From NCBI GenBank assembly GCA_032128395.1, contig JAQBGV010000193.1, positions 7,764-71,763 on the forward strand: a DNA stretch of 64,000 nucleotides, written 5' to 3'. Source of the stretch: Planctomycetota bacterium. GTDB taxonomy: Bacteria > Planctomycetota > UBA8108 > UBA1146. The translations under genes and the position numbers were made by a program. Of the stretch, positions 10,246 through 51,218 are shown one piece after another; positions within the stretch are counted from its first letter, which is position 1; each line of letters starts with the position of its first letter. Under the pieces are notes generated by a model that was given only the letters and a program-made list of their open reading frames with translations, did no database searches and was not told where the DNA came from.

Positions 10246-10727
10246 TCGAAGATTCTCGGCTCGAGTCGCTCATCCAGCGCAAGCTCGACGGGGAACTCAG
10301 CGATGCCGAACGAGTCGAGCTCGCCGAGGCGATCGCGAACGACCCCACCGCCTGCCGTCGACACGACGAATTCGTCGCCCTCGAGGGGCTGCTGTTCGCG
10401 GTCGGTCGCTCGGACCGCCCCGCGCTGGAGCCCGATCTCTCGCCCTTCGCCGACGATGGGGCGGTCCCGGATGAAGAGGAATTCCTGGGTTCCGCGGTGG
10501 GACTCTCGACCATCTTCGGAGCTCTCGCCCTGGCGGCGATCCTGTGGATCGGATCGATGTGGGTACCTCCGTCGCCCACGGCGCCGCCCGTTCGCGAAAT
10601 CGCTGCCCTCGAAGTCTGCTCCCTCTCCGACGGGTTCCTCGCGGTGCCCGGGGAGAGCGCGAATCCCGACATCCAAATCGTGTGGATCTACTCGCTGCAA
10701 CAACCCGCGGAAGGGAACGTACGATGA
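10242..10727 (+). CDS. anti-sigma factor (single TM segment)
   Basis: ATG 10242 overlaps the sigma stop (ATGA). N-terminal anti-sigma-like helix with Cys/His (ANDPTACRRHDEF) and a TM segment LSTIFGALALAAILWIGSMWV. Confidence 0.55.
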   Translation: MIEDSRLESLIQRKLDGELSDAERVELAEAIANDPTACRRHDEFVALEGLLFAVGRSDRPALEPDLSPFADDGAVPDEEEFLGSAVGLSTIFGALALAAILWIGSMWVPPSPTAPPVREIAALEVCSLSDGFLAVPGESANPDIQIVWIYSLQQPAEGNVR

Positions 10728-11671
10728 ACCGAGTCTCTCCGGCTCGACTGCTCGCAGGATCGGCCCTCTTCTTCTTCGCCGTCGCTTCTCCTCTCATCGC
10801 GCAATCGGACCCGGGCGCCATCCCGCGGCGCGAGGCACTGCGAGTGGTGGCCTACCCCCTCGAATCCGCAAACCCCGACGAGACCCAGAATCTGCTCGAG
10901 TCGCTCTTCCACGGAGATGGGCCGCTCGTGCGGATCACGAGTGACGCACGGACCAACACCGTGATCGTGTATGCGCCGGATTCGGTCCACACCCACGTTC
11001 GGGATCTGATCGGGACGCTCGATCGCCCCGTGAAGCAGACGCAAGTAGAGATGGAGACGGAGACGAGGGTCCTCATCTTCCAGCACATCACGGTGGACAG
11101 CCTGCGCCCAGTGGTGCAGCTGCACAACGTGCAGATCGCGACCAACGCCGCGACGAACAGCCTGATCGTGCGCGGCAAGACAGTCGAGATCGAACGTGTG
11201 GTCCAAACTCTCAGAGCCATCGATGTCGAGACCCCCTCGGTCGAACTCGAGTGCTGGCTTCTCGAGTCGGGCAGGGGCACGCAGATCGGGGATCATGTGG
11301 AGTTGAAGGGACTCGCTCCGGAGCTCGCGCGCGCGGGCCTCGAGGGGTTCGGAGTCTTCAGCCACATGGCGGTGCGCAGCCTCGCCGGGGAAAAGTTCGA
11401 CTCGAGTCAGAGCTTCGTGAACCGCCGGCTGCGGAACATGGCCCTCGGGGGAGTCGTACGGCTGGTGGACCAGGGCAAGACCGCGCAGATCGGGATCGGG
11501 ATCTCGATCTCGATGCAGCTCGATGAACTCGTGGACTCGAAGTCCTCGGGCAGCTTTCAACTGAACACCGAGCTGAGCACACAACCGGGCAAGTTGGTGG
11601 TCGTCGGCCTCGCCCCGACCGGGGACGAGAGTGCAAAGCCGCTGGTCCTGGTGCTGCGGGTGAAGAAGTAA
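10724..11671 (+). CDS. secreted protein with two secretin-N (NolW-like) type domains
   Basis: Signal peptide MNRVSPARLLAGSALFFFAVASPLIAQS. Two repeats show the secretin_N pattern (TNTVIVYAPDSVHTHVRDLIGTLDRP and NSLIVRGKTVEIERVVQTLRAIDVE). ATG 10724 overlaps the anti-sigma stop (ATGA). Confidence 0.45.
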   Translation: MNRVSPARLLAGSALFFFAVASPLIAQSDPGAIPRREALRVVAYPLESANPDETQNLLESLFHGDGPLVRITSDARTNTVIVYAPDSVHTHVRDLIGTLDRPVKQTQVEMETETRVLIFQHITVDSLRPVVQLHNVQIATNAATNSLIVRGKTVEIERVVQTLRAIDVETPSVELECWLLESGRGTQIGDHVELKGLAPELARAGLEGFGVFSHMAVRSLAGEKFDSSQSFVNRRLRNMALGGVVRLVDQGKTAQIGIGISISMQLDELVDSKSSGSFQLNTELSTQPGKLVVVGLAPTGDESAKPLVLVLRVKK

Positions 11672-16496: not shown

Positions 16497-19400
16497 GTGA
16501 GGTGGGGTGTGACGGTGCTCAATGCCGCGCGTGGGGCATTCATCGCGGCGGTCCTCGGAGCACTGCTCCTGACCTCCCCCGCGCAGGCCTTTACCGGTTG
16601 TGTGAACTCTGCCACCGCCGGCCATTACACCGTCGACTTCCTCGGCGTCGCCTACAACCCAGACGGCACGAGCACCTGGAACTACACCGTCACGTGGGAC
16701 GGTATCCCCCCTTCGCTCAGCCACTTCACGCTGAAGCTCTGCCATCAGGCCGAAGTGATCTCATCCGTTCCCGCGGGAGCGGAGGTCGGGTACGACGGAT
16801 CGACCGGTCTCTACGGGATCAAGTGGGACGACGTCACCATCGAAACCCCGGGCGTTCCGGTCCCGTTCACCTTCACGCTCGATCAGCCCTACGCGATCTC
16901 AGGGACGATCTTCGCGGCGAAGGCGGGGCCGTACCCGAACTTCGGCTGGATCTGCGGGCCGAGCAAGAAGTGCAAACTCGCACTCGTGCCCCCCAGCGAC
17001 CTCGTCTGCACCGTCCTCGATCCGTGCACCTGCGAAACACTGCTGACCTGGACGAACATCAGCGTGGTCGACCTGATCAACGTGCGGGTCGACGGGGTTC
17101 TGGTTGCAACTCTCCCCGGCGACACGACCTCCACCATCATCACCGTGAAGCCCGGGACCCACGCGATCGAGGTCACCGGGGTCATCGATCCTGCCGGCGA
17201 CGGCTACCAGCACGGGGGCGGTTCATACCCCTTTGGTGGCGGCGGGTATGGGGATGATGACGACGACGACGATGACGACGACGACGACGACGATGACGAC
17301 GACGACGACGACGGCAACCCGGGAGACAACGACCAGGAGACCGACCCCGCGATCTGCGAGGTCATCTGCCCCGACCACACCCCGGTCCCCCCCAAGGATC
17401 TCGTCTGCACTCCCGACCCGCTCGACTGCTCGGTCACGGTCTCCTGGGTGAACTCGCGCGACTACACCGAGATCATCGTCTTCCTCGATGGCCTCCCCTT
17501 CGAAACACTGCCGGGGAGTGCGACGAGCACGATGATCGGCGGGCCGCTGATCGGTTCGCACGGGGTCTGCCTGGCGGGCACGACGACGTGCGGCGACCCG
17601 TTCGCCGAGGTCTGCTGCCAGTTTTCCTGCGATGACCCCACCCCACCCCCGGTGACCGACCTCGTCTGTGAGGTCGCGGACATCTGCACCTGCGAGACCG
17701 AGGTCTCGTGGACGAACGGGGCGGCGAACTACGATTCGATCGAGGTGTTCGTCGACGGGAACTCCGCCGCGATCCTTCCAGGGTCGGCGACCTCGACGGT
17801 CGTCCTTCTCGGCGGGCCGGGAGAACACGTGATCTGCGTCGTCGCGACCCGGAACGAGTTCACGAGTGAGTTCGCCTGCTGCGGCGCGAATTGCCCGGCC
17901 ATCCCCGACGATCCTCCTTTCGCTCTGACCTGCGACGCGCCGCCGGCGCCGAATTGCGAGGCGAGCGCGATCTGGCTCGGGGGCGGCGTGTACTCCCAGA
18001 TCGAGGTTCTTCTCGACGGGGTCGTGGCCCAGGTTCTCCCCGGCGATACGTTCGAGACCACCGTGGCGATCCCCACCTCGGGGCCGCACGAACTCTGCCT
18101 GCGGGCGACGACGATCTGCGGGGTCGTGCTTCCGGACGTCTGCTGCACGGTCGAGTGCATCGGACCCCCCGACCCGATCACCGATCTGACCTGCACACTC
18201 GTCGACCTGTGCAAGTGTCTCTTCACGCTCGACTGGACCAACGGGAACCCCGACTACGACACAATCCAGGTCCTGATCGACGGGGTGCTCCACGAACGGA
18301 TCCCGGGCGACACGACCTCGCTCGCGCTGACGCTCCCCACCCCTGGCCTCCACGAAATTTGCCTGGTCCCGGTTCGCGCCGCGCTGCCCGGTCCCGAGAC
18401 GTGCTGCTCGGTGGACTGCCCCGACGTGCCCCCGGCGATGCCGGAGAATCTGGTCTGCACTTTTGACCCTCTGACGTGCATCTTCACGGTGATGTGGTCG
18501 AACCCGGTCCCGTACTCATCGCTCGAGATCTTCGTCGACGGCGTCGCCGCCGGGACCGCTCCGGGGGGCGCGTCCTCCTTCTCGATCCCGTTCCCGCTCA
18601 TCGGCCAGCACGAGATCTGCGTGGAGGGAACGACGATCTGCGAAGAGGTGACCCCCGCCGCGTGCTGTTCGGTCGAGTGCCAGATCCAGCCGCCCCTGCC
18701 GGTGCTCGATCTGGCGTGTGGGGTGGTCGATCCGTGCACCTGCATCGTCGCCGTCGCGTGGACGAACCAGGAGGCGAACTACGTCTCCGTCGAGGTCACC
18801 GTCGACGGAGTTCCATTCGCTTCCTTGGCCGGTACTGCGACCAACCTCGCGGTGACGCTCCCGGGTCCGGGAAACCACGTGATCTGCGTCTTCCCGATCC
18901 GCAACGGGGTCTCCGGCGATCAGGTTTGCTGCAAGGCGAACTGCCCGATCACCGACCCGATCCCCCCCGTGCTGCTCGAGTGTGTCGTCGACAAGCCGTC
19001 CGCGACCGCCACGATCAGTTGGCTGCCATCCGCGCTCTACTCCCAGGTCGAAGTGTTCCTGAACGGCGTGCTGGTCGAGACAGCGCCGGGGGACGCGACT
19101 TCGGCGTCGGTAGTTCTGACGCTGCCCGGCGTGAACACTCTCTCGCTGATCGCGACCACCGTCTGCGGTGAGGTGACCCCCGCGGTGAGTTGTGAGGTCA
19201 CCTCGGGGCTGACCCCGGTGATGATCAACGGACTCAGCTGCTCTCTCGTGTCCCAGTGCACCTGTGACGCGACGGCGACGTGGACCAACGGCGAGCTGTA
19301 CGACTCGATCATCATCCAAGTCAACGGGATCGTGGTCGCCACGCTCCCCGGAGATGCCGTCACGGCAGACTTCACTCTGGGAGCCCCCGGCACGCGCGAG

Positions 19401-20537
19401 GTCTGCGTCGTCCCGGTCATCAACTTGGTCGAGGGAGATGCCGTCTGCTGCATGGTGACCTGCGATGATGTACCGCTGACCCCACCGAACGGGATCACCT
19501 GCGACGTCGGCCCCGCACCCGACTGCGAAACCACCGTGACCTGGCTCAACCACTCGCAGTACGAGTCGATCCAAGTCACGCTCGACGGGGTGGTCATCAG
19601 CACCCAGCCGGGAGACGAGACGCAGACGACCGTGCTGCTCCCCGGCCCGGGTGCGCACCAGATTTGCCTCGTCGCGACGACGATCTGCGCCGACGTGCTC
19701 CCTCCGGTCTGCTGCACCGCGATGTGCGACTTCCCACCGGCGCCGCCGGAGAACGTCGTCTGCACCCTCGACGATCCGTGCCTCTGCACCGGAACGGTCA
19801 CCTGGACGAACGCGGACGCCGACTACGACGAGCTGATCGTCGAGGTCGACGGTGTGGTGATCGCGACCCTCCCCGGCAGCGCGACGAGCGCGCCGGTCGG
19901 ACCGGTCGCCCCCGGCCCCCACAACGTCTGCGTGACCGCGGTGCGGACGGGGCTCAGCTCCCCCGAAGTGTGCTGCGCCCTCGACTGTCCCGGCCCGCCG
20001 GCGCCGATCCCACCGAGCGGCCTGGTGTGTGGGGTCATCGACAATGGAACCTGCACGGTGAGCCTCGACTGGACGAACTCGATGCCGTACGGCGCCATCC
20101 AGATCCTCGCGGACGGGGTCGTCTGGGCCGATCTCGCCGGAAGTGCGACCCACTACGAGGCACCGCTCCCCGGTGGCATCACGAGTTCCGAGCTCTGCCT
20201 CGTCGCGACGACCGAGTGCGGCGACGCCGCCAACCAGGTCTGTTGTACGGTGGAGTGCCAGACCCAGTTCGTCCGAGGGGACTGCAACGTCGACGGAATC
20301 GTGAACATCGCCGACGGCGTCTACATCATGCGATTCCTCTTCCAGGGTTTCACGCCGAGCATCTGCCTCGATGCCTGCGACCACAACAGCGACGGCTTGG
20401 TCGACATCTCCGACGTGGTGTTCATCCTCCACTACATCTTCACCAGTGGTCCGCCCCCGCTCGCACCGTTCCCCGACTGCGGGGTCGACGTGGATGAAGT
20501 CCCGGGGTGCAACACGTATCCGTTCTGCTCGAACTGA
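16497..20537 (+). CDS. giant secreted protein: ~12 tandem Cys-rich ~88-aa modules, poly-Asp tract, C-terminal dockerin-like module
   Basis: Signal peptide ...VLNAARGAFIAAVLGALLLTSPAQA; the start is ambiguous among GTG 16497, 16509 and 16515. The repeating module is DLVCT.DP..C...V.W.N...Y..I.V..DG.....LPG.ATS......PG.HEIC...TT.CG.....CC.V.C, about 264 nt per unit over 16998-20270. D20 occurs at 17253-17312. C-terminus is GDCNVDGIVNIADGVYIMRFLF...DHNSDGLVDISDVVFILHYIFTSGPPPLAPFPDCG...C..YPFC. Confidence 0.8.
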   Translation: MRWGVTVLNAARGAFIAAVLGALLLTSPAQAFTGCVNSATAGHYTVDFLGVAYNPDGTSTWNYTVTWDGIPPSLSHFTLKLCHQAEVISSVPAGAEVGYDGSTGLYGIKWDDVTIETPGVPVPFTFTLDQPYAISGTIFAAKAGPYPNFGWICGPSKKCKLALVPPSDLVCTVLDPCTCETLLTWTNISVVDLINVRVDGVLVATLPGDTTSTIITVKPGTHAIEVTGVIDPAGDGYQHGGGSYPFGGGGYGDDDDDDDDDDDDDDDDDDDDGNPGDNDQETDPAICEVICPDHTPVPPKDLVCTPDPLDCSVTVSWVNSRDYTEIIVFLDGLPFETLPGSATSTMIGGPLIGSHGVCLAGTTTCGDPFAEVCCQFSCDDPTPPPVTDLVCEVADICTCETEVSWTNGAANYDSIEVFVDGNSAAILPGSATSTVVLLGGPGEHVICVVATRNEFTSEFACCGANCPAIPDDPPFALTCDAPPAPNCEASAIWLGGGVYSQIEVLLDGVVAQVLPGDTFETTVAIPTSGPHELCLRATTICGVVLPDVCCTVECIGPPDPITDLTCTLVDLCKCLFTLDWTNGNPDYDTIQVLIDGVLHERIPGDTTSLALTLPTPGLHEICLVPVRAALPGPETCCSVDCPDVPPAMPENLVCTFDPLTCIFTVMWSNPVPYSSLEIFVDGVAAGTAPGGASSFSIPFPLIGQHEICVEGTTICEEVTPAACCSVECQIQPPLPVLDLACGVVDPCTCIVAVAWTNQEANYVSVEVTVDGVPFASLAGTATNLAVTLPGPGNHVICVFPIRNGVSGDQVCCKANCPITDPIPPVLLECVVDKPSATATISWLPSALYSQVEVFLNGVLVETAPGDATSASVVLTLPGVNTLSLIATTVCGEVTPAVSCEVTSGLTPVMINGLSCSLVSQCTCDATATWTNGELYDSIIIQVNGIVVATLPGDAVTADFTLGAPGTREVCVVPVINLVEGDAVCCMVTCDDVPLTPPNGITCDVGPAPDCETTVTWLNHSQYESIQVTLDGVVISTQPGDETQTTVLLPGPGAHQICLVATTICADVLPPVCCTAMCDFPPAPPENVVCTLDDPCLCTGTVTWTNADADYDELIVEVDGVVIATLPGSATSAPVGPVAPGPHNVCVTAVRTGLSSPEVCCALDCPGPPAPIPPSGLVCGVIDNGTCTVSLDWTNSMPYGAIQILADGVVWADLAGSATHYEAPLPGGITSSELCLVATTECGDAANQVCCTVECQTQFVRGDCNVDGIVNIADGVYIMRFLFQGFTPSICLDACDHNSDGLVDISDVVFILHYIFTSGPPPLAPFPDCGVDVDEVPGCNTYPFCSN
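17253..17312 (+). repeat. (GAY)20 trinucleotide repeat encoding poly-Asp
   Basis: gatgatgacgacgacgacgatgacgacgac... gives 20 consecutive Asp codons inside the giant protein gene. Confidence 0.9.
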
Positions 20538-20659
20538 AGAGGTGCGGAGCCCGCTCTGAAAATGGACTGTCCCGACGGTCGGTTGCGGCTGTGCACACGC
20601 GGAGGAGCCCCGGCAGCTCCTGCGGAGAGCCGGAAGAATCGCGCCGCTTCCCGCTCGGC

Positions 20660-21982
20660 TCACCGCACGATCGCGCTGACCACTTCTCCCTCGATCAGCA
20701 CTCCGATGCAGTGCGTCGTGTACTCGAACGGGTCGCCGTCGTAGAGGGCGACGTCCGCGTCCTTGCCGACTTCGAGCGAACCCACTCGATCCGCGATGCC
20801 CAGGATCTCCGCCGCGGAGCGGGTCACCAATCCCAGTGCATCCGCGAAGGAACAGCCGAAGGATGCTGCGATCGCCGCCTCGTACAGGACCACGCGGGTC
20901 TTCGGGACATAACTCTCGTATCCCGATTCGAGGGCGCACGGGATCCCCGCCGCGATCAGTTTCGCCGCGGTGGTCATGCTCGCGTTCTCGGCCTCGCCAC
21001 TCGCTCGGTACATCGGCGGGTGCAAGAGGACCGGGACCCCGGCCGCACGGATCGCATCGATATGTTCGTACGCCTCGGCGGCGCCGTCGAGGATCAATCG
21101 AAGGTCGAACTCCGCGGCGAGCCTCAGCGCGTTCCTGATATCGACGCTTCGGTGGCACGTGATCATCAGCGGGACCTCCCCCGCGACCACGCGCGCGAGC
21201 ATGTCCTTGCGGAGGTCGACCGAGGGGGGGTCGGCCTCTGGATCGGCCGCATCCCGCGCTCGCTTCGCGCGGCTCTCCTGCGCTTGGATCAGAGCTTGGC
21301 GGAGCATCGAGAGCTGCTTCGCGCGGGTTCCGGGGCTCTTTCCCTCCCCCGCGAGCGCGTCGGCGCCGAGCGTCGCGGCAACCGCGAAGAGCGGCTTCAG
21401 TACCACCCCGTCGACGTCGCCGGTTCGGGTCTTCGCGATCATCGTCTGTCCACTGATCAGCTGACCCGGCGCGTGACCGGTGTGCACCGTCGTCACCCCG
21501 AAGCTGCGCACCCACGCGATGAGCGGTTCGCGCCCGTTGAAGGCGTCGATCGCGCGCAACTCCGGCTGCATCGCTTCCGATCGCTCCAGTTGGTCCTGGT
21601 CATGATCGTAGTTCAGCCAACCGGCGAGGCCGATCACCGAGTGCCCGTCGACCAGTCCTGGCGTGACCACCGGCGCCTCGATCTTCCGCGCGTCCGCGGG
21701 GACGGTGACTCGCGCCCGCGGCCCGACCGCGGTGATCTTTCCCCCCTCGATCAGGACCACACCGTTCTCGATCGGTGGACGCCACCCACCGTCGGGGGTG
21801 CGCGCTTGGGTGTGGATCACCGCGCCGTAGATCGCGGTGACCTGCCCCGCCGCCGCGGGGGTGGCGAGTCCCTTCGCCACCTCGAAAGAATCGAGTCCAC
21901 CGAGCGGTCCATCCGGGGTCTGCGCGCACGCCGGGGTGCCGATCACGAGGAGTGCGAGAGAGAACGCTTGGAGCGCACGCAT
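20660..21982 (-). CDS. secreted amidohydrolase-family metallohydrolase (paralog 1)
   Basis: Signal peptide MRALQAFSLALLVIGTPACA. Amidohydrolase fold motifs (PGLVDGHSVIG, HTGH, TCHRSVD, GKDADVALYD). Confidence 0.75.
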   Translation of the reverse strand: MRALQAFSLALLVIGTPACAQTPDGPLGGLDSFEVAKGLATPAAAGQVTAIYGAVIHTQARTPDGGWRPPIENGVVLIEGGKITAVGPRARVTVPADARKIEAPVVTPGLVDGHSVIGLAGWLNYDHDQDQLERSEAMQPELRAIDAFNGREPLIAWVRSFGVTTVHTGHAPGQLISGQTMIAKTRTGDVDGVVLKPLFAVAATLGADALAGEGKSPGTRAKQLSMLRQALIQAQESRAKRARDAADPEADPPSVDLRKDMLARVVAGEVPLMITCHRSVDIRNALRLAAEFDLRLILDGAAEAYEHIDAIRAAGVPVLLHPPMYRASGEAENASMTTAAKLIAAGIPCALESGYESYVPKTRVVLYEAAIAASFGCSFADALGLVTRSAAEILGIADRVGSLEVGKDADVALYDGDPFEYTTHCIGVLIEGEVVSAIVR

Positions 21983-25211: not shown

Positions 25212-27023
25212 ATGCGCCATCGCTTCCCCCTCTCACTCGTCGCCATCTCCCTCCTCCTCGTCGGCGCTACGGTCGCACAGGATGCGACACCGGCGGCCGC
25301 GCCCGCCGACCCGTTGCTCCGAGCCCTCCTCGGGGACTCCCCGGAGCAGGACAGCACGGCGCCCCGGCGGGCGACAGCTCCGATCCCGCCCGTGGCCGAT
25401 CCGCTGCTGCTCCCCCCCGCACCTCCGACGCCGGATGAGCCCCATGGACTGTGGCTCCTCAGCGATGGTCCCGCGACCGCTCCCACCATCCCGGACGAGC
25501 CCGCCCCTCCCCCGACCGGCGGTTGGCTCCTGACGCAGGACGGCACGGGGCGAGCGGTGTACGGGCAAGGCGGGACGACCGGGAATGGATTCAGTTTCTA
25601 CGACGGCATTGCGGACGCGCGCGACTACACCACCTGGAACACGAACTCGAACCAGGTCGATCTGCGCGTCAGCGTCGAGGGGGGTGGCATCACCGTTCAT
25701 CGCAATGGACGGCCCGTCCCCGATGATCAAATCGAACAGCACGGCTCGACTCTCCGCGTCCACGACGGAACCGGTCGTCTTCTCGTCACCATCGACGTTG
25801 CGGGCGATGGTCGGGTGACGATCCCCCCAGGGTGGAGTTTCCGCGGACCCGCGAACTGGGCCACCCAGGCCCAGAGCAAGAACGTGATCGGAATTCGCAC
25901 CGGATCGATCGAGGCAGCCCTCGCGCAGCACCTCGGTCTGGGGGACGGCGAGGGGATCCTGATCAGCGAAGCAGTCCCGGGTCATCCTGCCGCGGCGGCG
26001 GGACTGCGGGCGCACGACGTGATCGTCGCGATCGACGGACGACGCCCCGCTACCCTCGACCTCCTCAAGAACACCCTCCAGACGAAGGAAGCCGGAGCCC
26101 ACATCACGCTCACCGTGGTGCGCGCCGGGAACACCCTCGAGATTCGCTCCGAGATCACGCAGATCTCCGCTCCGGTCGGCGCGAACACGCTCCCGAGCGG
26201 CGCCTATGCGCTCTCACTCGGGGACTACGCGGGAGTGCTCACCGAAGAGGGCAACGTCCCCGCTCCAACCCTGCTCTGGCGGCGCAGTGGGAACGTGTTG
26301 CTCGGTTCGGAGGACGGGACGGCGGTGCTTCCGCCCTCGGCGAGAACGCTAGGATCGGCCCCGGCGCTCGGCCTCACCGGCGGCGGCGGCGCGGGAAGAG
26401 TGGTGGCCGTCCCCCGGCTGCCCGGGGGTTTGGCGGCGGGTCAGGTCGTGTCACCTGGGGCGAGCAACAATTTCGGCGGTCAGGTGGTCGGTCCGGATGG
26501 GAATCCGATCGCCGGGGCCCTGGTCGCTCCTGGCGCCGGCGGCGTGGTGGATCTCAGCCGGGGGCGGATCGCAGCTCCGGTGATCGGCGACGGATTCCGG
26601 CGCGCCGGGCCCGGAGGGGATCGCCTCGAGACGATCGAGAAGCGTCTCGAGAAACTCGAAGAGCTGCTGGAGAAGTTGCTCGAGCAGAAGAGCAAGGATC
26701 GGCAGCCTCGGGCGGAGGCGCCACGGCGCACCCAGAACATCGACGGCCGAGTCGTTGCGGTGATCGACGGTCTCGTGATCCTCTCGGTCGGTTCCGACGA
26801 CGGAGTTGCGAGCGGAGACGAATTCGTGGTCTATCGAGGTGAGCAGTTCATCGGGAAGGTACGGGTCAGCTCCGTGACTTCCGAGCAATCCGAAGCAACC
26901 GTTCTCTTCACACACAACAACTTGGGGATCGAACAGGGACAGAGCGCAACCACGCGGTTGAAGAGCCTGACCACCCCGTGGGAGGGGGACGACACGGTCG
27001 GCGCCACGGGCACCGGCGGCTAG
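25212..27023 (+). CDS. secreted PDZ-domain protein with coiled-coil segment
   Basis: Signal peptide MRHRFPLSLVAISLLLVGATVAQDA. PDZ-like region GIRTGSIEAALAQHLGLGDGEGILISEAVPGHPAAAAGLRAHDVIVAIDGRRP...LTVVRAGNTLEI. Coiled coil IEKRLEKLEELLEKLLEQK. Confidence 0.6.
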   Translation: MRHRFPLSLVAISLLLVGATVAQDATPAAAPADPLLRALLGDSPEQDSTAPRRATAPIPPVADPLLLPPAPPTPDEPHGLWLLSDGPATAPTIPDEPAPPPTGGWLLTQDGTGRAVYGQGGTTGNGFSFYDGIADARDYTTWNTNSNQVDLRVSVEGGGITVHRNGRPVPDDQIEQHGSTLRVHDGTGRLLVTIDVAGDGRVTIPPGWSFRGPANWATQAQSKNVIGIRTGSIEAALAQHLGLGDGEGILISEAVPGHPAAAAGLRAHDVIVAIDGRRPATLDLLKNTLQTKEAGAHITLTVVRAGNTLEIRSEITQISAPVGANTLPSGAYALSLGDYAGVLTEEGNVPAPTLLWRRSGNVLLGSEDGTAVLPPSARTLGSAPALGLTGGGGAGRVVAVPRLPGGLAAGQVVSPGASNNFGGQVVGPDGNPIAGALVAPGAGGVVDLSRGRIAAPVIGDGFRRAGPGGDRLETIEKRLEKLEELLEKLLEQKSKDRQPRAEAPRRTQNIDGRVVAVIDGLVILSVGSDDGVASGDEFVVYRGEQFIGKVRVSSVTSEQSEATVLFTHNNLGIEQGQSATTRLKSLTTPWEGDDTVGATGTGG

Positions 27024-27105
27024 CCGGAAGACTCCCGGAGAGAGCTGAGAGGATCGCCGCAGCCGATCCGGATGCGGCGGACCCCTCGTTCTTCGGTTCT
27101 CGCTC

Positions 27106-27174
27106 GAGGGACTGCCCCGGCGGTGGGGGGCAATCGACAACGCTCCTTCGCGAACGATCGTCGGGACACTCCCT
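27106..27174. repeat. palindromic intergenic element, family B copy
   Basis: GAGGGACTGCCCCGGCGG ...CAATCGAC... CGTCGGGACACTCCCTC. Homologous to the 11712-11797 element, including the internal CAATCGAC. Confidence 0.65.
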
Positions 27175-27334
27175 CAAGCCTCGACGGACCCTTGCCTCCG
27201 GGGCCCCTGCCAAGGAGAATCGGGTGCCCCAGCACAGCCCCGGAATCGGTACAGCCCCGGAAACGCACGATCCGCCCCCTGCGGTGCGGAGCTTCGGTGC
27301 ACCGGTTCTCCGGGAGGGCGGAAGGTGGCTCCCA

Positions 27335-28225
27335 GTGTCTCGTCGAATTCTCCCGATCCTCTCCATCGTCGCTCTGGTCGCCTCCTCCGCCTTCGCGGGC
27401 GAAGCCAACGACACTTTTTCGCGGGGGGACGCGAACCGGGATGGCGCACTGAACATCGCGGACGCCGTCTTCGTGCTCGACTATCTCTTCGGCGGAGCCG
27501 GCGCCGTTCTCCCCTGTCAGGACGCCGCCGATGCGAACGACGACGGGGCGATCGACATCGCGGACCCGATCCTCATGCTCGGCTATCTGTTCGTGCCGCC
27601 GCTGACGCCGCTCGTCGCACCGTTCCCGAACCCCGGTTCCGACCCGACCGCCGACGGCCTCACCTGCGCACCGATCGACTGCGCGAACGCCGCGGAGGTC
27701 GATGCTCTGCTCACGCTGCTCATCGGAACCTACCCTCTTCCCGGTGCGGTTCCACCGCAGACGATCACACAGTCCGGAGTGACGGTCGAGATCTTCGCCG
27801 CGGACGCGGTGGTGACCGTCGACAGCGTCAGCTACGACCCGATCACGGATACGTTCTCCGCATCGGGCACCGCAGGCGCCCCGGCGGTACCGACGACGAT
27901 CACCGCGTTCCTGATCAACGTCAGCTGCGATATCGCGGTGACCGGCAACTGGAGCATGACCGGTTCGCTCGACACCATCCCGATCAGCGCAGAGGCGTCC
28001 GAGGTCGTCGGCGTGACCCCGGGATCGGTGACATCATCGGTGACGAATACGAACATCGACTTTTCGGCGTGCGGGGGGATCGGCGTGATTCTTTCGATCG
28101 TCTCCGGTCTCTTCGATGCCGCGATCCAGGACGCGATCGATCAGATCGAGGTCCAGCTCGAGGCACAGATCACACAGGCCGTCGACGCAGTGATCGGGAC
28201 GACGCCGCTAATCGTCTGCGAGTAA
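27335..28225 (+). CDS. secreted protein with N-terminal dockerin-like module and Ser/Thr/Val-rich C-terminal domain
   Basis: GTG 27335 (SD GGAAGG). Signal peptide SRRILPILSIVALVASSAFA. Dockerin-like pair GDANRDGALNIADAVFVLDYLF / DANDDGAIDIADPILMLGYLF followed by PPLTPLVAPFPNPG. Confidence 0.6.
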   Translation: MSRRILPILSIVALVASSAFAGEANDTFSRGDANRDGALNIADAVFVLDYLFGGAGAVLPCQDAADANDDGAIDIADPILMLGYLFVPPLTPLVAPFPNPGSDPTADGLTCAPIDCANAAEVDALLTLLIGTYPLPGAVPPQTITQSGVTVEIFAADAVVTVDSVSYDPITDTFSASGTAGAPAVPTTITAFLINVSCDIAVTGNWSMTGSLDTIPISAEASEVVGVTPGSVTSSVTNTNIDFSACGGIGVILSIVSGLFDAAIQDAIDQIEVQLEAQITQAVDAVIGTTPLIVCE

Positions 28226-35134: not shown

Positions 35135-38100
35135 TCACACCCCGAGCAGATCGAGCGCGCTCTCGAGGCCATCGATCTGCGTCGCTTTCGGCGGCCGCCC
35201 GCCGATCTCCCCGCCGGTGAGCTCGACCACCTTCCAACCGCGCCCTCGGAGCGCCTGGATGATCGCGGCGCGATCTCCGGCGAAGATCAGCCAGTTGTCC
35301 TCGGAATCGAACTTCTTCACCCCCCAGCTCCCGAGGAGGAGCCGCAGCCGCTGGAGCCGGAACAGCGTCTCGGTCTCGGCGGGGAGCTTGCCGAAGCGGT
35401 CGACCAGGTCGGCCGCAATCTCGTCGAGTTCGCTCGCGGTGAGCGCGGTCGCGATCGCCCGGTACGCACGCAACCTCCCGCGGGTGTCCCCGATGTATTC
35501 CTCGGGGATGCGGGTGTGTCCTTCGAGGCCGATCTCGATGTCGGGGGGTTCTTGCCATGCGGTGCCGCGCATGTCGGCGACCGCGCGCTCGAGCAGGCGA
35601 CAGTAGAGGTCGTAGCCGACCGCCGCGATGTGCCCTGACTGCTCCTTGCCGAGGATGTTCCCCGCGCCGCGGATCTCGAGGTCGCGCATTGCGATCTGGA
35701 AGCCGCTGCCGAGCGCGGTCAGTTCTTCGAGCGCCTGCAGTCGGTGACGCGCCTCTTGCTTGATCGGACGGTCGTCGGGGAGAAGCAGGAAGCAGTACGC
35801 CTTGTGGGTGCCGCGCCCGACCCGCCCGCGCAGCTGGTGCAGCTCCGCGAGACCGAACCGGTCTGCGCGATCGATCACCATGGTGTTCGCGCTCGGGATG
35901 TCGAGGCCGCTCTCGATGATCGTCGTCGAGACGAGCACATCGACTTCCTTGGCGAGGAATCGATTCATCCGCGCCTCGAGCTCGTGCTCGTTCATCTGCC
36001 CGTGCACCTCGATCATCCGCGCCTCCGGAACCAACCTCTCGAGCGCCTCGCGCTTCACCCGCAGCGACTTCACCCGGTTGTGGAGGTAGAAGACCTGCCC
36101 GTCGCGGTTGAGTTCACGCAGCATGATCTGCCGAAAGCGTTCCTCATCGAAGTGACACACCTCGGTGTGGACCGGATTTCGCCCCTGGGGTGGATCGGCG
36201 AGGCTCGAAATGTCTTTCACGCCGACGAGCGACATGTGCAGCGTCCGCGGGATCGGCGTCGCGGTGAGGGTCAGCACGTCGGCGAGGCGTCGCAGATGCT
36301 TGAGCCGCTCCTTGTGCGCCACCCCGAAGCGCTGCTCCTCGTCGATGATGATCAGCCCGAGGTTCTGGAAGTGCACGTCGGCGGAGAGGAGTCGGTGGGT
36401 GCCGATCAGGATGTCGATTTCGCCCGCGGCGGCGCGTTTCAGGATATCGGTCTGTTCGCGCCGGCTGCGCAGGCGGCTGATCGCCTCGACCCGCACTGGA
36501 AACTCCGCCATGCGATCGCGAAACGTCAATCGGTGCTGCTCGGCGAGAATCGTCGTCGGGACCAGGATCGCCACCTGTCTCCCCGCGCGCGTCGATTTGA
36601 ACGCGGCGCGCATCGCGAGCTCGGTCTTGCCGAAGCCGACGTCTCCGCAGATCAGGCGATCCATCGGCTTCGGCGACTCCATGTCGCGGCGGATCGCCTC
36701 CATGCTCGTCAGCTGATCGTCGGTCTCCTGGAAGGGGAACGCCGCTTCGAATTCGTGCTGCCAGTGGTCATCGGTGGGGAACGCCATCCCCTCCCGCTCG
36801 GTGCGCAGGGCCTGCATCTCGAGGAGATCCGCGGCGAGGTCGTGCAGCCCCTCCGCGACCTTCGCCTTCTTCTTGCCCCAAGCGGTCGATCCGACCCGGT
36901 CGAGCCGGACGTGACGACCCTTGCTCCCGACGAACTTCTGGACCAGGTCGATCCGTTCGACCGGGACGAGGATCTGGACCCCTTCGGAGTACTCGAGGAT
37001 GAGGAAGTCTCCCGGACGGCGACCTTGGGTCTGGTGTCGGATTCCTCGGAAGCGCGCGATGCCGTGAGAAACGTGGACGACGTGCGCTCCCTCCTCGAGC
37101 TCGAGGAAGCTGTCGACCGCCCGCCCCTCCGCGCGTTGTTTCGCGCGCCTGGACATCGCGCGGCTGCGGCCGAGCGCGGCGGAGCCGGAGAGAAAGATTC
37201 CCCCGGTCGGTTCGAGCCACCGAAAACCGCGCGAGAGATCTCCGAGGGTCGGGCGTGCTCCGGAGCCGACCCCCGCCCCCGCGTCGGCGAGCACTTCGAG
37301 AAAGCGCTCGACCTCCGCCTCCTGGCGGAAGAAGACCCGCAGCTCGACCCCCTTCCGCGTTTCCGCCACGATCGCGGGGACCGTGTTCTCGAGCGAACCG
37401 ATGAACGCTTCGGTGGAGCCGGCGGGGAGCAGAACCGCGTTGCGCCCCTTCTCCGGTGAGAGGGGATCGAGGGCGAGATGGGTGAACTTCCCCGATCGCG
37501 CCCAGAACTCATCGCCGATCGATCGCTCCTGCTTCGGCGCCCACTGTCCGATCAGAGTCCGACTGCGCTCGTCGAGCTGGCCCGGGTTCGGGAGGACGAG
37601 AACCAGGTCTTCGGGAAGGCCGTCGAAGAGCAGCAGCTCCTCCCCGGTGAATCCACGGATGAAGTAGTCGCGTTTCGGGAGGAGTGTGAGGACGAGCATC
37701 GGCACCTCGTCCCCCGAGCGTTGGTCTTTTGTGGAGACGGAACGGATGGTGTCGATCTCGTTGCCGAAGAAGTCGACCCGATAGGGGTGGGAGCCCTCTC
37801 GTGGGTAGATGTCGAAGATCCCACCTCGAACCGAGAAGTCCCCGGGGCGCGCGACCTGTGGGAAGCGCCGATACCCCGCGTCGACGAGGGCGCGGGCGAG
37901 GGTCTCGGGGGGGAACCGGTCTCCGGTGCGGAGCAGGATCCGTCGGTCGTCGGTGGCGTCCGGTCGCGAGATCGGCTGCAAGATCGCCTGCACCGGCGCG
38001 ACCGCGGCCCGGACCGTACCGGCGCGCAACCCTTCCGAGCACTCGGTCCGCTCGCGGAAGATGTCGGGATCGGGCTCCGATTCCGCCTCGAAGAGAGACT

Positions 38101-38395
38101 CCCACGGGGGAAAGACGTGCACCGGTTCATCGGTGAAGGTCGACCAGTCGCGACGGAGACGTTCCGCCTCATCGAGGCTCGCGGTCACCGCCAGGATCGG
38201 CCGCGAGGTGGTCTCGGTCAGCCCCGCGAGCAAGAAGCCACTGACGCCCTCTCCCGCCCGCCCGACCAGGACCTCGCCGCCGCGGTCGAGGCGCCGGCGG
38301 ATCTCGGCGATCGACTTGGACTCTCGGAAGATCTTGCTCGCGAGCCGCTCCGCGTCGAGTGGCGGGTGCGTACCGGCGGGGTCGGCTGCGGACAT
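35135..38395 (-). CDS. mfd: transcription-repair coupling factor Mfd
   Basis: Full-length Mfd: UvrB-homology N-terminus, RecG-like helicase motifs (LICGDVGFGKTELAMRAAF, DEEQRFGV, HQLRGRVGR) and a TRG/CarD region. Start at MSAADPAG (ATG 38395). Confidence 0.9.
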   Translation of the reverse strand: MSAADPAGTHPPLDAERLASKIFRESKSIAEIRRRLDRGGEVLVGRAGEGVSGFLLAGLTETTSRPILAVTASLDEAERLRRDWSTFTDEPVHVFPPWESLFEAESEPDPDIFRERTECSEGLRAGTVRAAVAPVQAILQPISRPDATDDRRILLRTGDRFPPETLARALVDAGYRRFPQVARPGDFSVRGGIFDIYPREGSHPYRVDFFGNEIDTIRSVSTKDQRSGDEVPMLVLTLLPKRDYFIRGFTGEELLLFDGLPEDLVLVLPNPGQLDERSRTLIGQWAPKQERSIGDEFWARSGKFTHLALDPLSPEKGRNAVLLPAGSTEAFIGSLENTVPAIVAETRKGVELRVFFRQEAEVERFLEVLADAGAGVGSGARPTLGDLSRGFRWLEPTGGIFLSGSAALGRSRAMSRRAKQRAEGRAVDSFLELEEGAHVVHVSHGIARFRGIRHQTQGRRPGDFLILEYSEGVQILVPVERIDLVQKFVGSKGRHVRLDRVGSTAWGKKKAKVAEGLHDLAADLLEMQALRTEREGMAFPTDDHWQHEFEAAFPFQETDDQLTSMEAIRRDMESPKPMDRLICGDVGFGKTELAMRAAFKSTRAGRQVAILVPTTILAEQHRLTFRDRMAEFPVRVEAISRLRSRREQTDILKRAAAGEIDILIGTHRLLSADVHFQNLGLIIIDEEQRFGVAHKERLKHLRRLADVLTLTATPIPRTLHMSLVGVKDISSLADPPQGRNPVHTEVCHFDEERFRQIMLRELNRDGQVFYLHNRVKSLRVKREALERLVPEARMIEVHGQMNEHELEARMNRFLAKEVDVLVSTTIIESGLDIPSANTMVIDRADRFGLAELHQLRGRVGRGTHKAYCFLLLPDDRPIKQEARHRLQALEELTALGSGFQIAMRDLEIRGAGNILGKEQSGHIAAVGYDLYCRLLERAVADMRGTAWQEPPDIEIGLEGHTRIPEEYIGDTRGRLRAYRAIATALTASELDEIAADLVDRFGKLPAETETLFRLQRLRLLLGSWGVKKFDSEDNWLIFAGDRAAIIQALRGRGWKVVELTGGEIGGRPPKATQIDGLESALDLLGV

Positions 38396-38564
38396 CGGAG
38401 CGCTCCAGGGAAAGAGGGGGCGCAGAGTGTACACCGCCGGCGAAAGTCGTCCCATCGGGTGCGCGGAAGCCGGTCTGACGGATGAAAAGGAGGGGCCCCC
38501 CGGGTGGGGGCCCCTCGAAGATTGGCCGCGGGAACCGCGTGGGTCACGCGGTCGGGTCCCGCTC

Positions 38565-39101
38565 TCACCTCCGAGTGGGCTCTCGGGATCCGAAGAGGAT
38601 CTCGGCGAGGACGACCAAGTCGGTGATCGTGATCCGGCCGTCACCGTCTACGTCCGCGGCCTCGTACCCCCCGCCCGGTCGCGCGACCCCTGCGAAGACT
38701 CGCTGGAGGAGGTTGAAGTCTTCCTTGTCGACGTCCCCGTCCCCATCGACATCTCCCTGCAGCTTCCGCTCAGGGGTCGAGGGAGCGGGCGAGGCGTTGG
38801 AGCGTTGCGCCGGTCCGATACTCACCTGGCGCTCCGCGAGAGCGGCGAGCATCACGGCGTCGGCCTTGTCGATCGCACCGTTCTGATCGACATCGAGCTG
38901 CGCCCGCGTGTACCGGTGCGGCGCCCCGCCGAGGATGCTCCGCAGGATCGCGACGTCATCGAAGTCGTAGATCCCGTTGCCGTTCAGGTCTCCCGGAGCC
39001 AGCGCCCTGCTGGCCGCCACGTCTGCCGCGATCGCGCTCCCCGCGATTCCACTCGTCACCAAGAGAACCAGAGCCGTGAGCACTGCCTTGTGCGTACGCA
39101 T
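38565..39101 (-). CDS. small secreted protein of four dockerin/EF-hand-like Ca-binding repeats
   Basis: Signal peptide MRTHKAVLTALVLLVTSGIAGSAIA. Four repeats: DLNGNGIYDFDDVAIL, DVDQNGAIDKADAVMLAAL, DVDGDGDVDKEDFNLLQRV and DVDGDGRITITDLVVLAEIL. SD AGGAGG. Confidence 0.6.
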   Translation of the reverse strand: MRTHKAVLTALVLLVTSGIAGSAIAADVAASRALAPGDLNGNGIYDFDDVAILRSILGGAPHRYTRAQLDVDQNGAIDKADAVMLAALAERQVSIGPAQRSNASPAPSTPERKLQGDVDGDGDVDKEDFNLLQRVFAGVARPGGGYEAADVDGDGRITITDLVVLAEILFGSREPTRR

Positions 39102-39304
39102 GTCGCCTCCTGCCTTTCCGACGCCCCTTCCCGCGCCGCTCCAGACCACCAGGAGCTCGACGCGGACGGGAGAAGAGGAAGCAGGCGGCGTGCCGCGCAC
39201 GTGGAGGTGCGTAGGTCATGAGGAGATGGGGAGTTGGGTGACGAGCGGTGGAGGAGCGGGAGTGTCCCTGTCAGGGAATCGGACAGGGTGGGAGATCGGT
39301 ATTG

Positions 39305-39485: not shown

Positions 39486-40229
39486 TCAATCCCCGTTCGG
39501 TATCTCCACCCCGAGGGTCCGCAGCGACTCCTCCGCCGCGGACTGCTCCGCTTCCTTCTTGTTCTTGCCGGAGCCGTGGCCGAGCTTTCGCTTGCCGAGC
39601 ATCGCTTGCACCGTGAATTCCTTCGAGTGGTCGGGGCCGTGCTCGGAGATCACTTTGTAGGTCGGAGTTCGGTTCTCCTCTTTTTGCAGATGCTGCTGCA
39701 GGAGCGACTTGAAGTTCAAGGGGTGCTGATTCCGCTTCACCGCGATCACCTGGTGATACAGGTTGCGGATGCAGAACTCGCGCGCCTGTTCGAGCCCGCC
39801 GTCGAGGTAGATCGCCGCCACCACCGCCTCGAAAACGTTCGCGAGTAGAGATGGCGGCAGCTTGCGACGGTTCGTCACCCCCTTGCCGACCTGGAACGCC
39901 TCGTCGAGTCCGAGGCGTTCGCTCTCGGCGGCGAGGGTGGCCGTCGAGACGACGACCGACTTGATCTGGGTCAGCTCTCCCTCGGCGAGGTCGTCGAAGA
40001 AGTTGAAGAGGAACTCGGTCATCACCAACCCCAGGACGGAGTCGCCGAGGAACTCCATCCGCTCGTTGCAGGGGTTGTCGATCGTCTTGATCGATGAGTG
40101 CGTGAGGGCCTGGAGGAGATGTTCGGGGTCGCGGAAGGTGTAGCCGACGCGCTGCTCACACACCTCGAGGCGTTTGAGGTCCTCCTGAGGGATGTGCTCG
40201 TGCTCGAAGCTCCGCGGACCTGCCATCAC
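39486..40229 (-). CDS. rnc: ribonuclease III
   Basis: RNase III signature ERMEFLGDSVLGLV, catalytic EAVVAAIYLDGG, and a C-terminal dsRBD with GSGKNKKEAEQSAA. Confidence 0.88.
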   Translation of the reverse strand: MMAGPRSFEHEHIPQEDLKRLEVCEQRVGYTFRDPEHLLQALTHSSIKTIDNPCNERMEFLGDSVLGLVMTEFLFNFFDDLAEGELTQIKSVVVSTATLAAESERLGLDEAFQVGKGVTNRRKLPPSLLANVFEAVVAAIYLDGGLEQAREFCIRNLYHQVIAVKRNQHPLNFKSLLQQHLQKEENRTPTYKVISEHGPDHSKEFTVQAMLGKRKLGHGSGKNKKEAEQSAAEESLRTLGVEIPNGD

Positions 40230-40659
40230 CTATCCTGACGGGGCTGACCCGGGGCGTTCCGGGGGCCACGACCCGGAGGGGACGTTCCGACGGCGGTCCG
40301 AGGCCGGGGTCTCTCCCCCCATGGGAAGGGGCGCCGGCGCCGCACCGGGAACTCCTCCGGGCAGTTCTTTTTCTATCGGTCGCCGGGAGTGGGTGGACCA
40401 GCGCAGCGGAGCGATTGGGGTCATCACGGCGGGAAGGGGAAACCCCGTACGTCCGAACGGAACGGGGGCTCCCCTTCACGCCGGGAAAGCCACCCAAGAT
40501 GCCCACCGCGGGCCGGAAGCCCTTCCAGGCGAAGAACTTGGAGTATATCGATCGAGCCCCTCCCGGAGCAAGGGCGCCCGAGGAGTGTGCCCGAAGATGC
40601 GGTGCGATGGCCGCACATCGATTCACGCGGTACAAACGGCCCTCTCGGAAGGAGAGACC

Positions 40660-41871
40660 GTGAATTTCCCCCCGAATCCGCCGCTCCCGCGTCCGTCGAC
40701 GTCCTCGGGCGCTTCCGGCAAGGCCGGGTCGACGCGCTCCGCTCCCGCCGTGTACCCCGTCGGGGGACATGTCCTGTCGATCTTCGATCTTCTCGCCCGG
40801 TTCACCGAGACCGCCTACATGGTCGATGGCATCTCTCGGCTCTCCGACCTGCACCTCACCGTCGGCGAACCGATCCGGTACCGCTTCGATGGCGAGCTCG
40901 TCACGCTCCCCGACGCATTTCCCGTCACGCCGGAGATCCTCGAGCAACTGCTCGCCCCGATCCTGAGCGAGGAGCAACTGGCTCGGCTCCGGTCGAGTAC
41001 GCAGGAATCGGTCGATGCCGGCTTCGAGTGGGCCGAGAGGGCGCTCAGCTTCCGGATCAACGTCTTCCACGATCGTCACGGACTCGCGTCCGCGATCCGC
41101 GTCCTCCCCCGCAGCATCCCACCCCTCTCGGGAATCGGGTTCCCGGATGAGTCGGTGTGGCGGGAGATCGTCGACCTCTCCCAAGGTCTCGTCATCGTGA
41201 CCGGGGTCACCGGAAGCGGGAAGTCGACGACGATTGCGAGCATCCTGCAACACATCAACCGCAACCGAGGGGCTCGGATCATCACCCTCGAGGATCCGAT
41301 CGAGTACGTGCTCGACAGCGAGAAGGCGCTCGTCTCCCAGCGCGAGCTCGGCCGCCACCTCTCGAGTTTCTCGGATGGTCTGCGCAGCGCCCTGCGCGAA
41401 GACCCGGACGTGATCTTCGTCGGCGAGATCCGCGACCGGGAGACGGGGTCACTCGCTCTCACCGCGGCCGAGACCGGACACCTCGTCCTGACCACGCTCC
41501 ACACCCGCGACACTCGAGGGGCGATCACTCGGCTCGTCGACCTCTTCCCCGCGGAACGAACGAAGGAGCTGAGCACGCAACTCTCGTTCGCGCTCTCGAC
41601 GATCATCGGGCAGAAGCTGGTGCCGAACGCCGTAGGGGGAGGCCGACGCGTCGCGATGGAAGTCCTCAAGAACACGCCTTCGATCGCGCACCTGATCCGG
41701 AGCGGCAAGTGGGAGCAGATCTACACGACGATCGAGACGCAGCGCGCCGCGGGGATGATCACGATGGAGCGGCATCTGATGTCGCTGGTCGAGCAAGGGA
41801 AGATCACGAGGGAAGCCGCACTCCACGCGGCGAACACCCGGTCGCTGCTCGCATTCCTCGGCGAAAAGTAG
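40660..41871 (+). CDS. pilT: type IV pilus retraction ATPase PilT/PilU family
   Basis: Walker A GVTGSGKSTT, Walker B/Asp box PDVIFVGEIRD and His box LVLTTLHTRD. GTG 40660 has a perfect AAGGAG SD 5 nt upstream. There is a ~40-aa N-terminal extension before the conserved core. Confidence 0.85.
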   Translation: MNFPPNPPLPRPSTSSGASGKAGSTRSAPAVYPVGGHVLSIFDLLARFTETAYMVDGISRLSDLHLTVGEPIRYRFDGELVTLPDAFPVTPEILEQLLAPILSEEQLARLRSSTQESVDAGFEWAERALSFRINVFHDRHGLASAIRVLPRSIPPLSGIGFPDESVWREIVDLSQGLVIVTGVTGSGKSTTIASILQHINRNRGARIITLEDPIEYVLDSEKALVSQRELGRHLSSFSDGLRSALREDPDVIFVGEIRDRETGSLALTAAETGHLVLTTLHTRDTRGAITRLVDLFPAERTKELSTQLSFALSTIIGQKLVPNAVGGGRRVAMEVLKNTPSIAHLIRSGKWEQIYTTIETQRAAGMITMERHLMSLVEQGKITREAALHAANTRSLLAFLGEK

Positions 41872-51046: not shown

Positions 51047-51218
51047 GAAGACTCCTGGTGCAAGCGGGGGACCTCGGCGTTCACCCACGAATGGCGAACA
51101 CCAGCGCCTGAACCTATCAGAATCACGCGAATCGGGGAAGTCGGCGGGGGTCGCCATGGCGTTCGGTACGGGCCTCGGTCACGATGTACTCGACCTCGAT
51201 GCGAAGGGAGTCTGGCCG

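Follow-up and report, generated by a model that had tools for sequence, protein, structure and literature searches.

A secreted planctomycete protein with twelve cysteine-rich fibronectin type III domains and a C-terminal dockerin

In its canonical form the fibronectin type III (Fn3) domain is a beta-sandwich without disulfides. The dockerins of cellulosomes are typically C-terminal and multi-paralogous, and the X-module-dockerin (X-Doc) dyad of scaffoldins is associated with type II dockerins. Tandem arrays of Fn3 domains (Pfam PF00041) are joined head-to-tail by short linkers, each domain being a seven-strand ABE/C'CFG sandwich of ~90 aa with a tryptophan in strand B and an aromatic residue in strand C, and type I dockerins (Pfam PF00404; C. 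thermocellum CelS, 1daq/2mte, and 2y3n_B) consist of two duplicated F-hand segments with aspartate or asparagine at set positions of the loops. For freshwater Planctomycetes, Andrei et al. (2019, PMC6461901) hypothesised the 'planctosome', a cohesin/dockerin complex of non-cellulosomal type, in which dockerins and cohesins carried by secreted, non-cellulolytic passengers are proposed to assemble at the cell surface in a Ca2+-dependent manner; the model is experimentally unverified and concerns LTD, P-domain, HYR and peptidase proteins of Nemodlikiaceae. In this study we examined a gene from a 64,000-nucleotide (nt) stretch of an uncultured planctomycete (contig JAQBGV010000193.1, assembly GCA_032128395.1; hereafter the window), which an earlier note, made from the sequence alone, had described as encoding a scaffoldin-like protein built from a novel repeated module.

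The gene is real and encodes a secreted protein of 1346 amino acids (aa), which is composed of a head of about 130 aa, twelve Cys-rich Fn3 domains and a C-terminal dockerin. It constitutes an unusual variant of known folds, and neither a new module nor a new kind of system. We consider it reasonably probable that the protein is a dockerin-anchored, disulfide-stiffened Fn3 stalk displaying a binding head, within a non-cellulosomal planctomycetal cohesin-dockerin system. It shares with the planctosome proteins its origin in Planctomycetota, its secretion and the occurrence of a dockerin or cohesin module on a non-cellulolytic passenger, and Ca2+-dependent surface assembly is proposed in both cases, but the Cys-rich Fn3 rods, the Cys-extended tail and the head domain described here have no place in the planctosome model.

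The repeated module is a divergent Fn3 domain. No repeat model of Pfam or NCBIfam matched the units when the full-length protein was scanned, and Pfam fn3 did not match the window protein even at E<=10, its gathering score not being reached. An AlphaFold model of units 3-5, for which 32 in-register unit triplets served as input, is all-beta with seven strands per unit (predicted local distance difference test, pLDDT, 95.8), and its top Foldseek matches in the PDB were three-domain FN3 fragments (probability 1.00, E~1e-11) from contactins (contactin FN1-FN3, 5e53), fibronectin (1fnf/1fnh), RIM-BP (6q9m) and titin (8bnq). Comparison of the unit profile with PDB sequences retrieved RIM-BP FN3 at E 5.5e-4 and, weakly, consensus FN3 designs. 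Furthermore, P0041, a less Cys-rich relative found with the unit profile, matches Pfam fn3 with 42.9 bits against a cut-off of 25. The earlier note, which had suggested that consecutive units be modelled for an Ig/Fn3-like fold, was right in not recognising the units as a known Pfam repeat, but the Foldseek, RIM-BP and P0041 matches overturn its claim that the module is novel, an assignment to a described family being the outcome that the note itself had named as refuting it. The most conserved positions of the unit are those of the core and the Cys (W, Y, G, C), and the units resemble classical Fn3 arrays in strand topology, in the strand B tryptophan and strand C aromatic, and in their head-to-tail arrangement with short linkers; they differ from canonical Fn3 in their 7 Cys per domain, in the alternation of two subtypes and in an interdomain disulfide that is inferred below. 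The full-length scan also returned marginal matches to BiPBP_C (27.1 bits against 26.8, in unit 10), PA-IIL (26 bits), GLOD4_C and the dockerin part of CelK. Membership of BiPBP_C or PA-IIL was rejected, the matches being attributable to local beta-sandwich or 'W.N...DG' motif similarity; no PA-IIL stretch passes alone, and PA-IIL-type lectins appeared in the PDB profile search at E 1.6 only.

A hidden Markov model (HMM) of the unit identified 12 units of 87-88 aa (E 1e-21 to 1e-32 each), each anchored by an invariant tryptophan (aa 185, 317, 405, 493, 580, 667, 755, 842, 929, 1016, 1103 and 1192), in agreement with the approximately twelve tandem Cys-rich modules first described. Pairwise identity between units is 27-53% at the protein level and 44-63% at the nucleotide level, so that the units are indeed diverged as nucleotide sequences, as had been stated. 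Tandem Repeats Finder (minimum score 30) recovered only (GAC)18 at 17259-17313 and no ~264-nt period, because the units are too diverged, and the periodicity was hence established on the protein level. Comparison of the gene product with itself, a check that the earlier note had proposed, gave maxima of self-identity at lags of 350 aa (0.235) and 175 aa (0.219), followed by 87/88 aa, over a background of 0.072 and far above the maximum of 0.128 reached in 200 shuffles. Two subtypes alternate strictly in the window protein and in all close homologs: type A carries Cys-x-Cys at the AB loop/strand B start and no FG-loop Cys, and type B a single Cys at the AB loop/strand B start and a 'TTxCG' FG loop. 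The true super-repeat, and the evolutionary one, is therefore the A-B pair of ~175 aa or 525 nt; the period of ~264 nt (88 aa) originally reported describes the single units and not this longer repeat. Units 1-10 are colinear with units 1-10 of the orthologs P0001 and P0004, with 47-69% identity as against 40-53% for the best paralogous unit, and it follows that the array is old and that its copy number changes only near the C-terminal end.

Cysteine accounts for 6.5% of the protein. Seven Cys are found in ten of the units, five in unit 1 and three in unit 8; the 6-7 conserved Cys per unit of the original description are therefore correct for ten units and not for these two. We assessed the co-variation of Cys presence and absence at eight profile positions in 510 complete units from 167 proteins, which comprise 166 retrieved relatives and the window protein. 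C1 in strand A and CG2 in strand G are both present in 464 units, both missing in 14 and discordant in 32 (phi 0.49); this pair is nearly universal and is the sole one in the commonest Cys pattern (193 units). Tighter associations link CF in strand F with CG1 in strand G (263 both, 235 neither, 12 discordant, phi 0.95) and Cb at the start of strand B with CL at the end of strand G (191, 294 and 25, phi 0.90). Across neighbouring domains, Ca in the AB loop of unit i goes with CFG at the FG-loop tip of unit i+1 (85 both, 192 neither, 4 discordant), Ca being always accompanied by CFG in the next unit, while the relation of Ca(i) to CFG(i-1) is looser (17 discordant). In the Fn3 topology the AB loop belongs to the C-terminal pole of a domain and the FG loop to its N-terminal one, and so Ca(i) and CFG(i+1) face each other over the i/i+1 interface. 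The parity of the counts agrees with such pairing, as the Cys count is odd in every domain of the window protein (7, 5 or 3) and even in the A-B pairs (12, 14, 14, 10, 14 and 14), with 4 Cys in the head and 6 in the tail; the losses in units 1 and 8 fall exactly in predicted pairs. From co-variation and parity we infer three intradomain disulfides per canonical domain and one interdomain A(i)-B(i+1) disulfide per A-B pair. Full-text literature searches retrieved no description of such Cys-rich Fn3 arrays or of a stapled Fn3 architecture.

The run of twenty aspartates (D20), which had been placed ahead of the array, sits inside the FG loop of unit 1, at aa 253-272 (nt 17253-17312). Unit 1 matches the profile only up to position 69, where strand F ends, and its G strand, AICEVICPD, lies 3' of the acidic tract; once the insertion of aa 231-277 is deleted the unit matches the profile over its full length (score 89.3, against 76.0 for the truncated match), which establishes a layout of one split unit and 11 contiguous ones. 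The equivalent site holds variable D/E tracts in P0001-P0004, ~350 aa with four DUF7467 (PF24269) domains in P0005 and P0021, and no insertion in P0006 and P0007. The FG loop of unit 1 thus appears to be an insertion hot spot.

The tail is homologous to type I dockerins. When the last 95 aa were scanned alone they matched Pfam Dockerin_1 (PF00404) with 28.6 bits against a cut-off of 22.9 (E 1.7e-6), and a profile of 22 tails retrieved from the PDB 2y3n_B at E 1.2e-6, followed by CelS, 3ul4_B and 4uyp_B (positions 3-59), aligning to the solved dockerins across both duplicated segments; the NCBIfam CelK dockerin region was matched at E 0.002, and the homolog P0006 is annotated by NCBI as 'dockerin type I repeat-containing protein'. 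Both Ca loops, of the DxNxDGxxNxxD type, are intact in sequence, with D/N at positions 1, 3, 5, 9 and 12. These results support the two-repeat dockerin-like Ca-binding module of the earlier note. An integrin-type reading of the conserved 'RGD' at the tail start was discarded, as these residues open the first dockerin Ca loop. The tail has the F-hand duplication and D/N loop positions of type I dockerins, from which it differs in its non-cellulosomal, planctomycetal context and in three additions, namely a Cys that 99% of tails have in the linker between the repeats, an optional pair of Cys, one in each of the two loops (phi 0.92), which the window protein has, and an extension of ~30 aa without counterpart in solved dockerins. 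The consensus of this extension is PPxPFPxCGxDPTxDxLxCxxFPxC; its Cys at profile positions 77, 88 and 94 are kept in 86%, 90% and 62% of 147 tails, and no PDB sequence matched past profile position ~59. The last Fn3 Cys and the FVRGD motif of the tail lie just ~4 residues apart, and the A-B-dockerin cassette is conserved in relatives of ~445 aa. A beta-sandwich module directly abutting a dockerin is likewise found in the X-Doc dyads, with the Fn3-like X modules of cellulosomal scaffoldins, but the dockerin here is type I-like, whereas X-Doc is linked to type II dockerins.

The head domain recurs in other architectures, with type IX secretion system (T9SS)-type tails (PF18962) in P0013 and P0016, and as the sole domain of P0169 (212 aa), where a hydrophobic anchor (…GSLFWVKRRSS) comes after it at the C-terminus. 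No more than 3 fragments were retrieved when the head was used in a word-indexed search. The head is a mobile domain family, and its recurrence fits an autonomous binding module; carbohydrate-binding modules such as CBM2 were considered as candidates for it.

The plus-strand open reading frame (ORF) is open from 16329, and its stop codon lies at 20535-20537. An alternative start at GTG 16350 is possible; GTG 16497 is favoured because a signal peptide follows it directly and because homologs start 25-45 aa upstream of the first conserved Cys. The length of 1347 aa given previously should read 1346, and secretion is supported by the signal peptide, which is predicted to end in AQA, before F. The G+C content at third codon positions of this frame is 0.87, usual for genes of the window (66.7% GC). 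The antisense ORFs over the gene, such as that of 999 aa at 18516-21515 (minus strand), were set aside as shadow ORFs of GC-rich sequence on the grounds of codon-position GC and of the conservation of the plus-frame protein. The coordinates of the features are given in Table 1.

Table 1. Features of the gene and other dockerin-bearing reading frames of the window
Feature	Position	Strand	Remarks
Whole gene	16497..20537	+	1346 codons and stop; GTG 16497 is the favoured start
Signal peptide, aa 1-31	16497..16589	+	MRWGVTVLNAARGAFIAAVLGALLLTSPAQA, followed by F; basic n-region, hydrophobic core and AxA cleavage motif, read from sequence
Head domain, aa 32-162	16590..16982	+	10-strand beta-sandwich, 4 Cys; no Pfam or NCBIfam family
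Fn3-like unit 1, type A, aa 163-291	16983..17369	+	Split by the FG-loop insertion; unit HMM, deletion test
Gly-rich and poly-Asp insertion of 47 aa in the FG loop of unit 1, aa 231-277	17187..17327	+	Deletion test
Fn3-like units 2-12, aa 295-1257	17379..20267	+	Contiguous, order B,A,B,A...; 7 Cys each, unit 8 with 3
Type I dockerin-like module, aa 1261-1314	20277..20438	+	Ca-binding loops DCNVDGIVNIAD and DHNSDGLVDISD
Cys-containing C-terminal extension, aa 1315-1346	20439..20534	+	PPPLAPFPDCGVDVDEVPGCNTYPFCSN; kept across the family
Purple-acid-phosphatase-like secreted protein, 1227 aa	5660-9343	-	Pur_ac_phosph_N, Metallophos and Flg_new_2; Cys-bearing dockerin-like tail, E 9e-19 to the tail HMM
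Tail module right after the signal peptide (FSRGDANRDG...), then a domain of ~190 aa	~27380-28225 (ORF 26978-28225)	+	Dockerin_1, 21.2 bits
ORF of 216 aa with two Dockerin_1 repeats	38568-39215	-	61.5 bits; overlaps the plus-strand ORF 37809-39221, gene call uncertain

Of 1.84 billion cluster representatives, 1528 were matched by the unit profile at E<=1e-3, of which 169 reached E<=1e-30. Module and tail occur together in 147 of the 167 family proteins, and in 144 of these 147 the tail lies within 10 residues of the C-terminus. The passengers found in the family include phosphatases, peptidases and cytochrome c peroxidases, and the named members are nearly all from Planctomycetota metagenome-assembled genomes (MAGs). 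A search of GTDB genomes with the full protein found no relative, and one with the consensus tail found at least 183 loci, nearly all in MAGs labelled as Planctomycetota/Planctomycetia and often many per genome (at least 9 in one MAG). The largest array of the family was seen in P0051, a protein of 4876 aa on a 1.9-Mb contig, with 48 stretches matching the Fn3-like unit profile. Planctomycete-type tails were also observed at six loci in records labelled as Nanoarchaeota, Woesearchaeota, Bacillota, Patescibacteria or Omnitrophota (L018, L028, L029, L033, L038 and L044), in one instance on a contig of 341 kb; wrong labels or contamination of the bins may account for them, and genuine occurrences beyond Planctomycetota are conceivable.

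Cohesin-like modules are present in approximately 31 of the 170 proteins examined. P0069 combines a Pfam Cohesin match of 37.6 bits with three tails, and a set of ~445-aa proteins (P0103, P0113, P0128, P0129, P0133, P0136, P0138, P0144, P0148-P0150, P0152, P0157, P0159 and P0165) is organised as signal peptide, cohesin-like N-terminal domain, Fn3 A, Fn3 B and Cys-dockerin tail. The top PDB matches to a profile of this N-terminal domain are all cohesins (E 2.4e-4 to 0.03). Proteins with a cohesin and a dockerin on one chain could serve as adaptors or form head-to-tail polymers. In the window protein, neither Pfam Cohesin (E<=10) nor a family-specific cohesin HMM gave a match. Its resemblance to a scaffoldin, pointed out in the earlier note, consequently does not hold: it has no cohesin modules and bears a dockerin, as a docked partner and not a scaffold would.

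Taken together, we propose that the protein would be exported by the Sec route to the surface or the extracellular space, where its twelve Fn3 domains would form a long rod of ~40 nm, assuming the usual Fn3 span of 3.5 nm per domain. The rod would be stiffened by internal disulfides between strands A and G, between strands F and G, and between the start of B and the end of G, together with a staple from the AB-loop Cys of each type-A domain to the FG-loop-tip Cys of the next type-B domain. Through its Ca2+-binding type I dockerin, which bears a small extension knotted by Cys, the rod would be docked to a cohesin partner encoded elsewhere in the genome, and the ~130-aa beta-sandwich head, held off the anchor, would most likely bind a particle, polymer or surface. 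The acidic Gly/Asp-rich loop beside the head may bind cations. Besides the Fn3 fold, the co-variation and parity of the Cys and the dockerin homology, this stalk-and-dockerin model is supported by the linkage of module and tail in the family, the cohesin-like fusions in about 31 relatives, the three further dockerin-bearing ORFs of the window, the conserved synteny described below and the planctosome proposal. Several observations weigh against it. No cohesin gene was found in the 64-kb window or in the syntenic loci L001 and L002, so that the partner is hypothetical; Dockerin_1 went unreported in the full-length Pfam scan and appears only when the tail is scanned alone; the head could be assigned to no family or known ligand by comparison with Pfam, NCBIfam and the PDB; the disulfide map is drawn from co-variation and parity; and the extreme C-terminal position of most tails, with a conserved extension foreign to dockerins, would also fit a sorting signal.

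Indeed, the main rival explanation, to which we give a minor though appreciable probability, regards the C-terminal ~90 aa mainly as a lineage-specific sorting or attachment signal, in the role of T9SS C-terminal domains or PEP-CTERM, that a secretion or anchoring machinery and not a cohesin would recognise, and leaves the Fn3 stalk and head unchanged. In addition to the position and extension of the tail, it would account for the many paralogs on unrelated passengers, the window phosphatase among them, and for the lack of a nearby cohesin. Against this, solved dockerins are matched by the first ~57 residues of the tail, in which neither Ca loop is impaired; copies stand directly behind a signal peptide (as in the plus-strand ORF at 26978-28225) or, in P0069, at internal positions or three to a protein, which would not be expected of a C-terminal signal; the family also contains cohesin-like modules; and a C-terminal, multi-paralogous occurrence is equally a property of cellulosomal dockerins. 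An improbable alternative is that of a structural fibre, holdfast or envelope component in which the rods would form surface fibres by self-assembly or by cross-links (disulfide exchange or chains of cohesin and dockerin) and no specific ligand would exist for the head. The rigid, elongated array, the high Cys content and the relatives able to polymerise would be in line with it, but the window protein, devoid of a cohesin, cannot chain alone, an even pairing scheme covers all Cys with no obvious free thiol for cross-links, and the head is conserved and recurrent in other architectures, as expected of a functional module.

We regard as very unlikely a scaffoldin-like role in which 12 novel modules would each recruit partner proteins: many repeated modules with a terminal dockerin are known from adaptor scaffoldins and the units escape the Pfam repeat models, but the modules are Fn3 and not cohesin by any of the searches above, and the conservation of core and Cys positions is that of structural spacers. 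Similarly slim are the chances of a protein devoted mainly to binding cations (Ca2+ or another metal) or minerals through the D20 tract. The 20-Asp run in an acidic loop and the D/E-rich tracts of four relatives at the equivalent site would speak for it; the absence of the tract from P0006 and P0007 and its replacement by DUF7467 domains in P0005 and P0021 mark a variable loop and not a conserved core.

The Fn3 domain is the textbook disulfide-free sandwich, and a lineage that adds up to three internal disulfides stepwise, and then a staple in strict A/B alternation, would offer a clean case of spacer rigidification for an oxidising exterior; stiff Fn3 rods of this kind are also a possible template for protein engineers. 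The gene is tied to a widespread, almost exclusively planctomycetal and uncharacterised family mixing Fn3, cohesin-like modules and a Cys-bearing dockerin tail, which gives the cohesin-dockerin assemblies of non-cellulosomal type, so far hypothetical in Planctomycetota, concrete parts that can be put to the test. More tentatively, and as a possibility we hold well short of conviction, the A and B domains may form stapled di-domains (three plus three intradomain disulfides and one from AB loop to FG loop), the Cys-extended tail marking a large Planctomycetota-specific cohesin-dockerin network (>1500 protein clusters, dozens of tails per genome) that perhaps underlies the planctosome or surface fibres.

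The gene is preceded by genes for a SulP/STAS transporter, a CBS protein and a Secretin_N protein and followed by two amidohydrolases, whose functions are unrelated to it. The orthologs P0001 and P0004 have matching neighbours on metagenome contigs of 248 kb and 196 kb, and this conserved synteny identifies a stable chromosomal gene and no island. A purple acid phosphatase with the tail, orthologous to that of the window, adjoins P0004 in L002 (5421-8279, minus strand). Of the three further dockerin-bearing ORFs in the window, the one at 26978-28225 matches Dockerin_1 with 21.2 bits, slightly below the cut-off, and its ~190-aa domain has no Pfam match; the placement of its tail module directly after the signal peptide implies that the module is not confined to C-termini. 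Among the envelope or secretion-related genes of the window, a Secretin_N protein is encoded at 10475-11668 on the plus strand, as is an E-type ATPase of type II secretion system/type IV pilus (T2SS/T4P) kind at 40189-41868. Finally, the minus strand encodes at 48314-51175 a 953-aa multi-haem cytochrome c protein with a PA14 domain.

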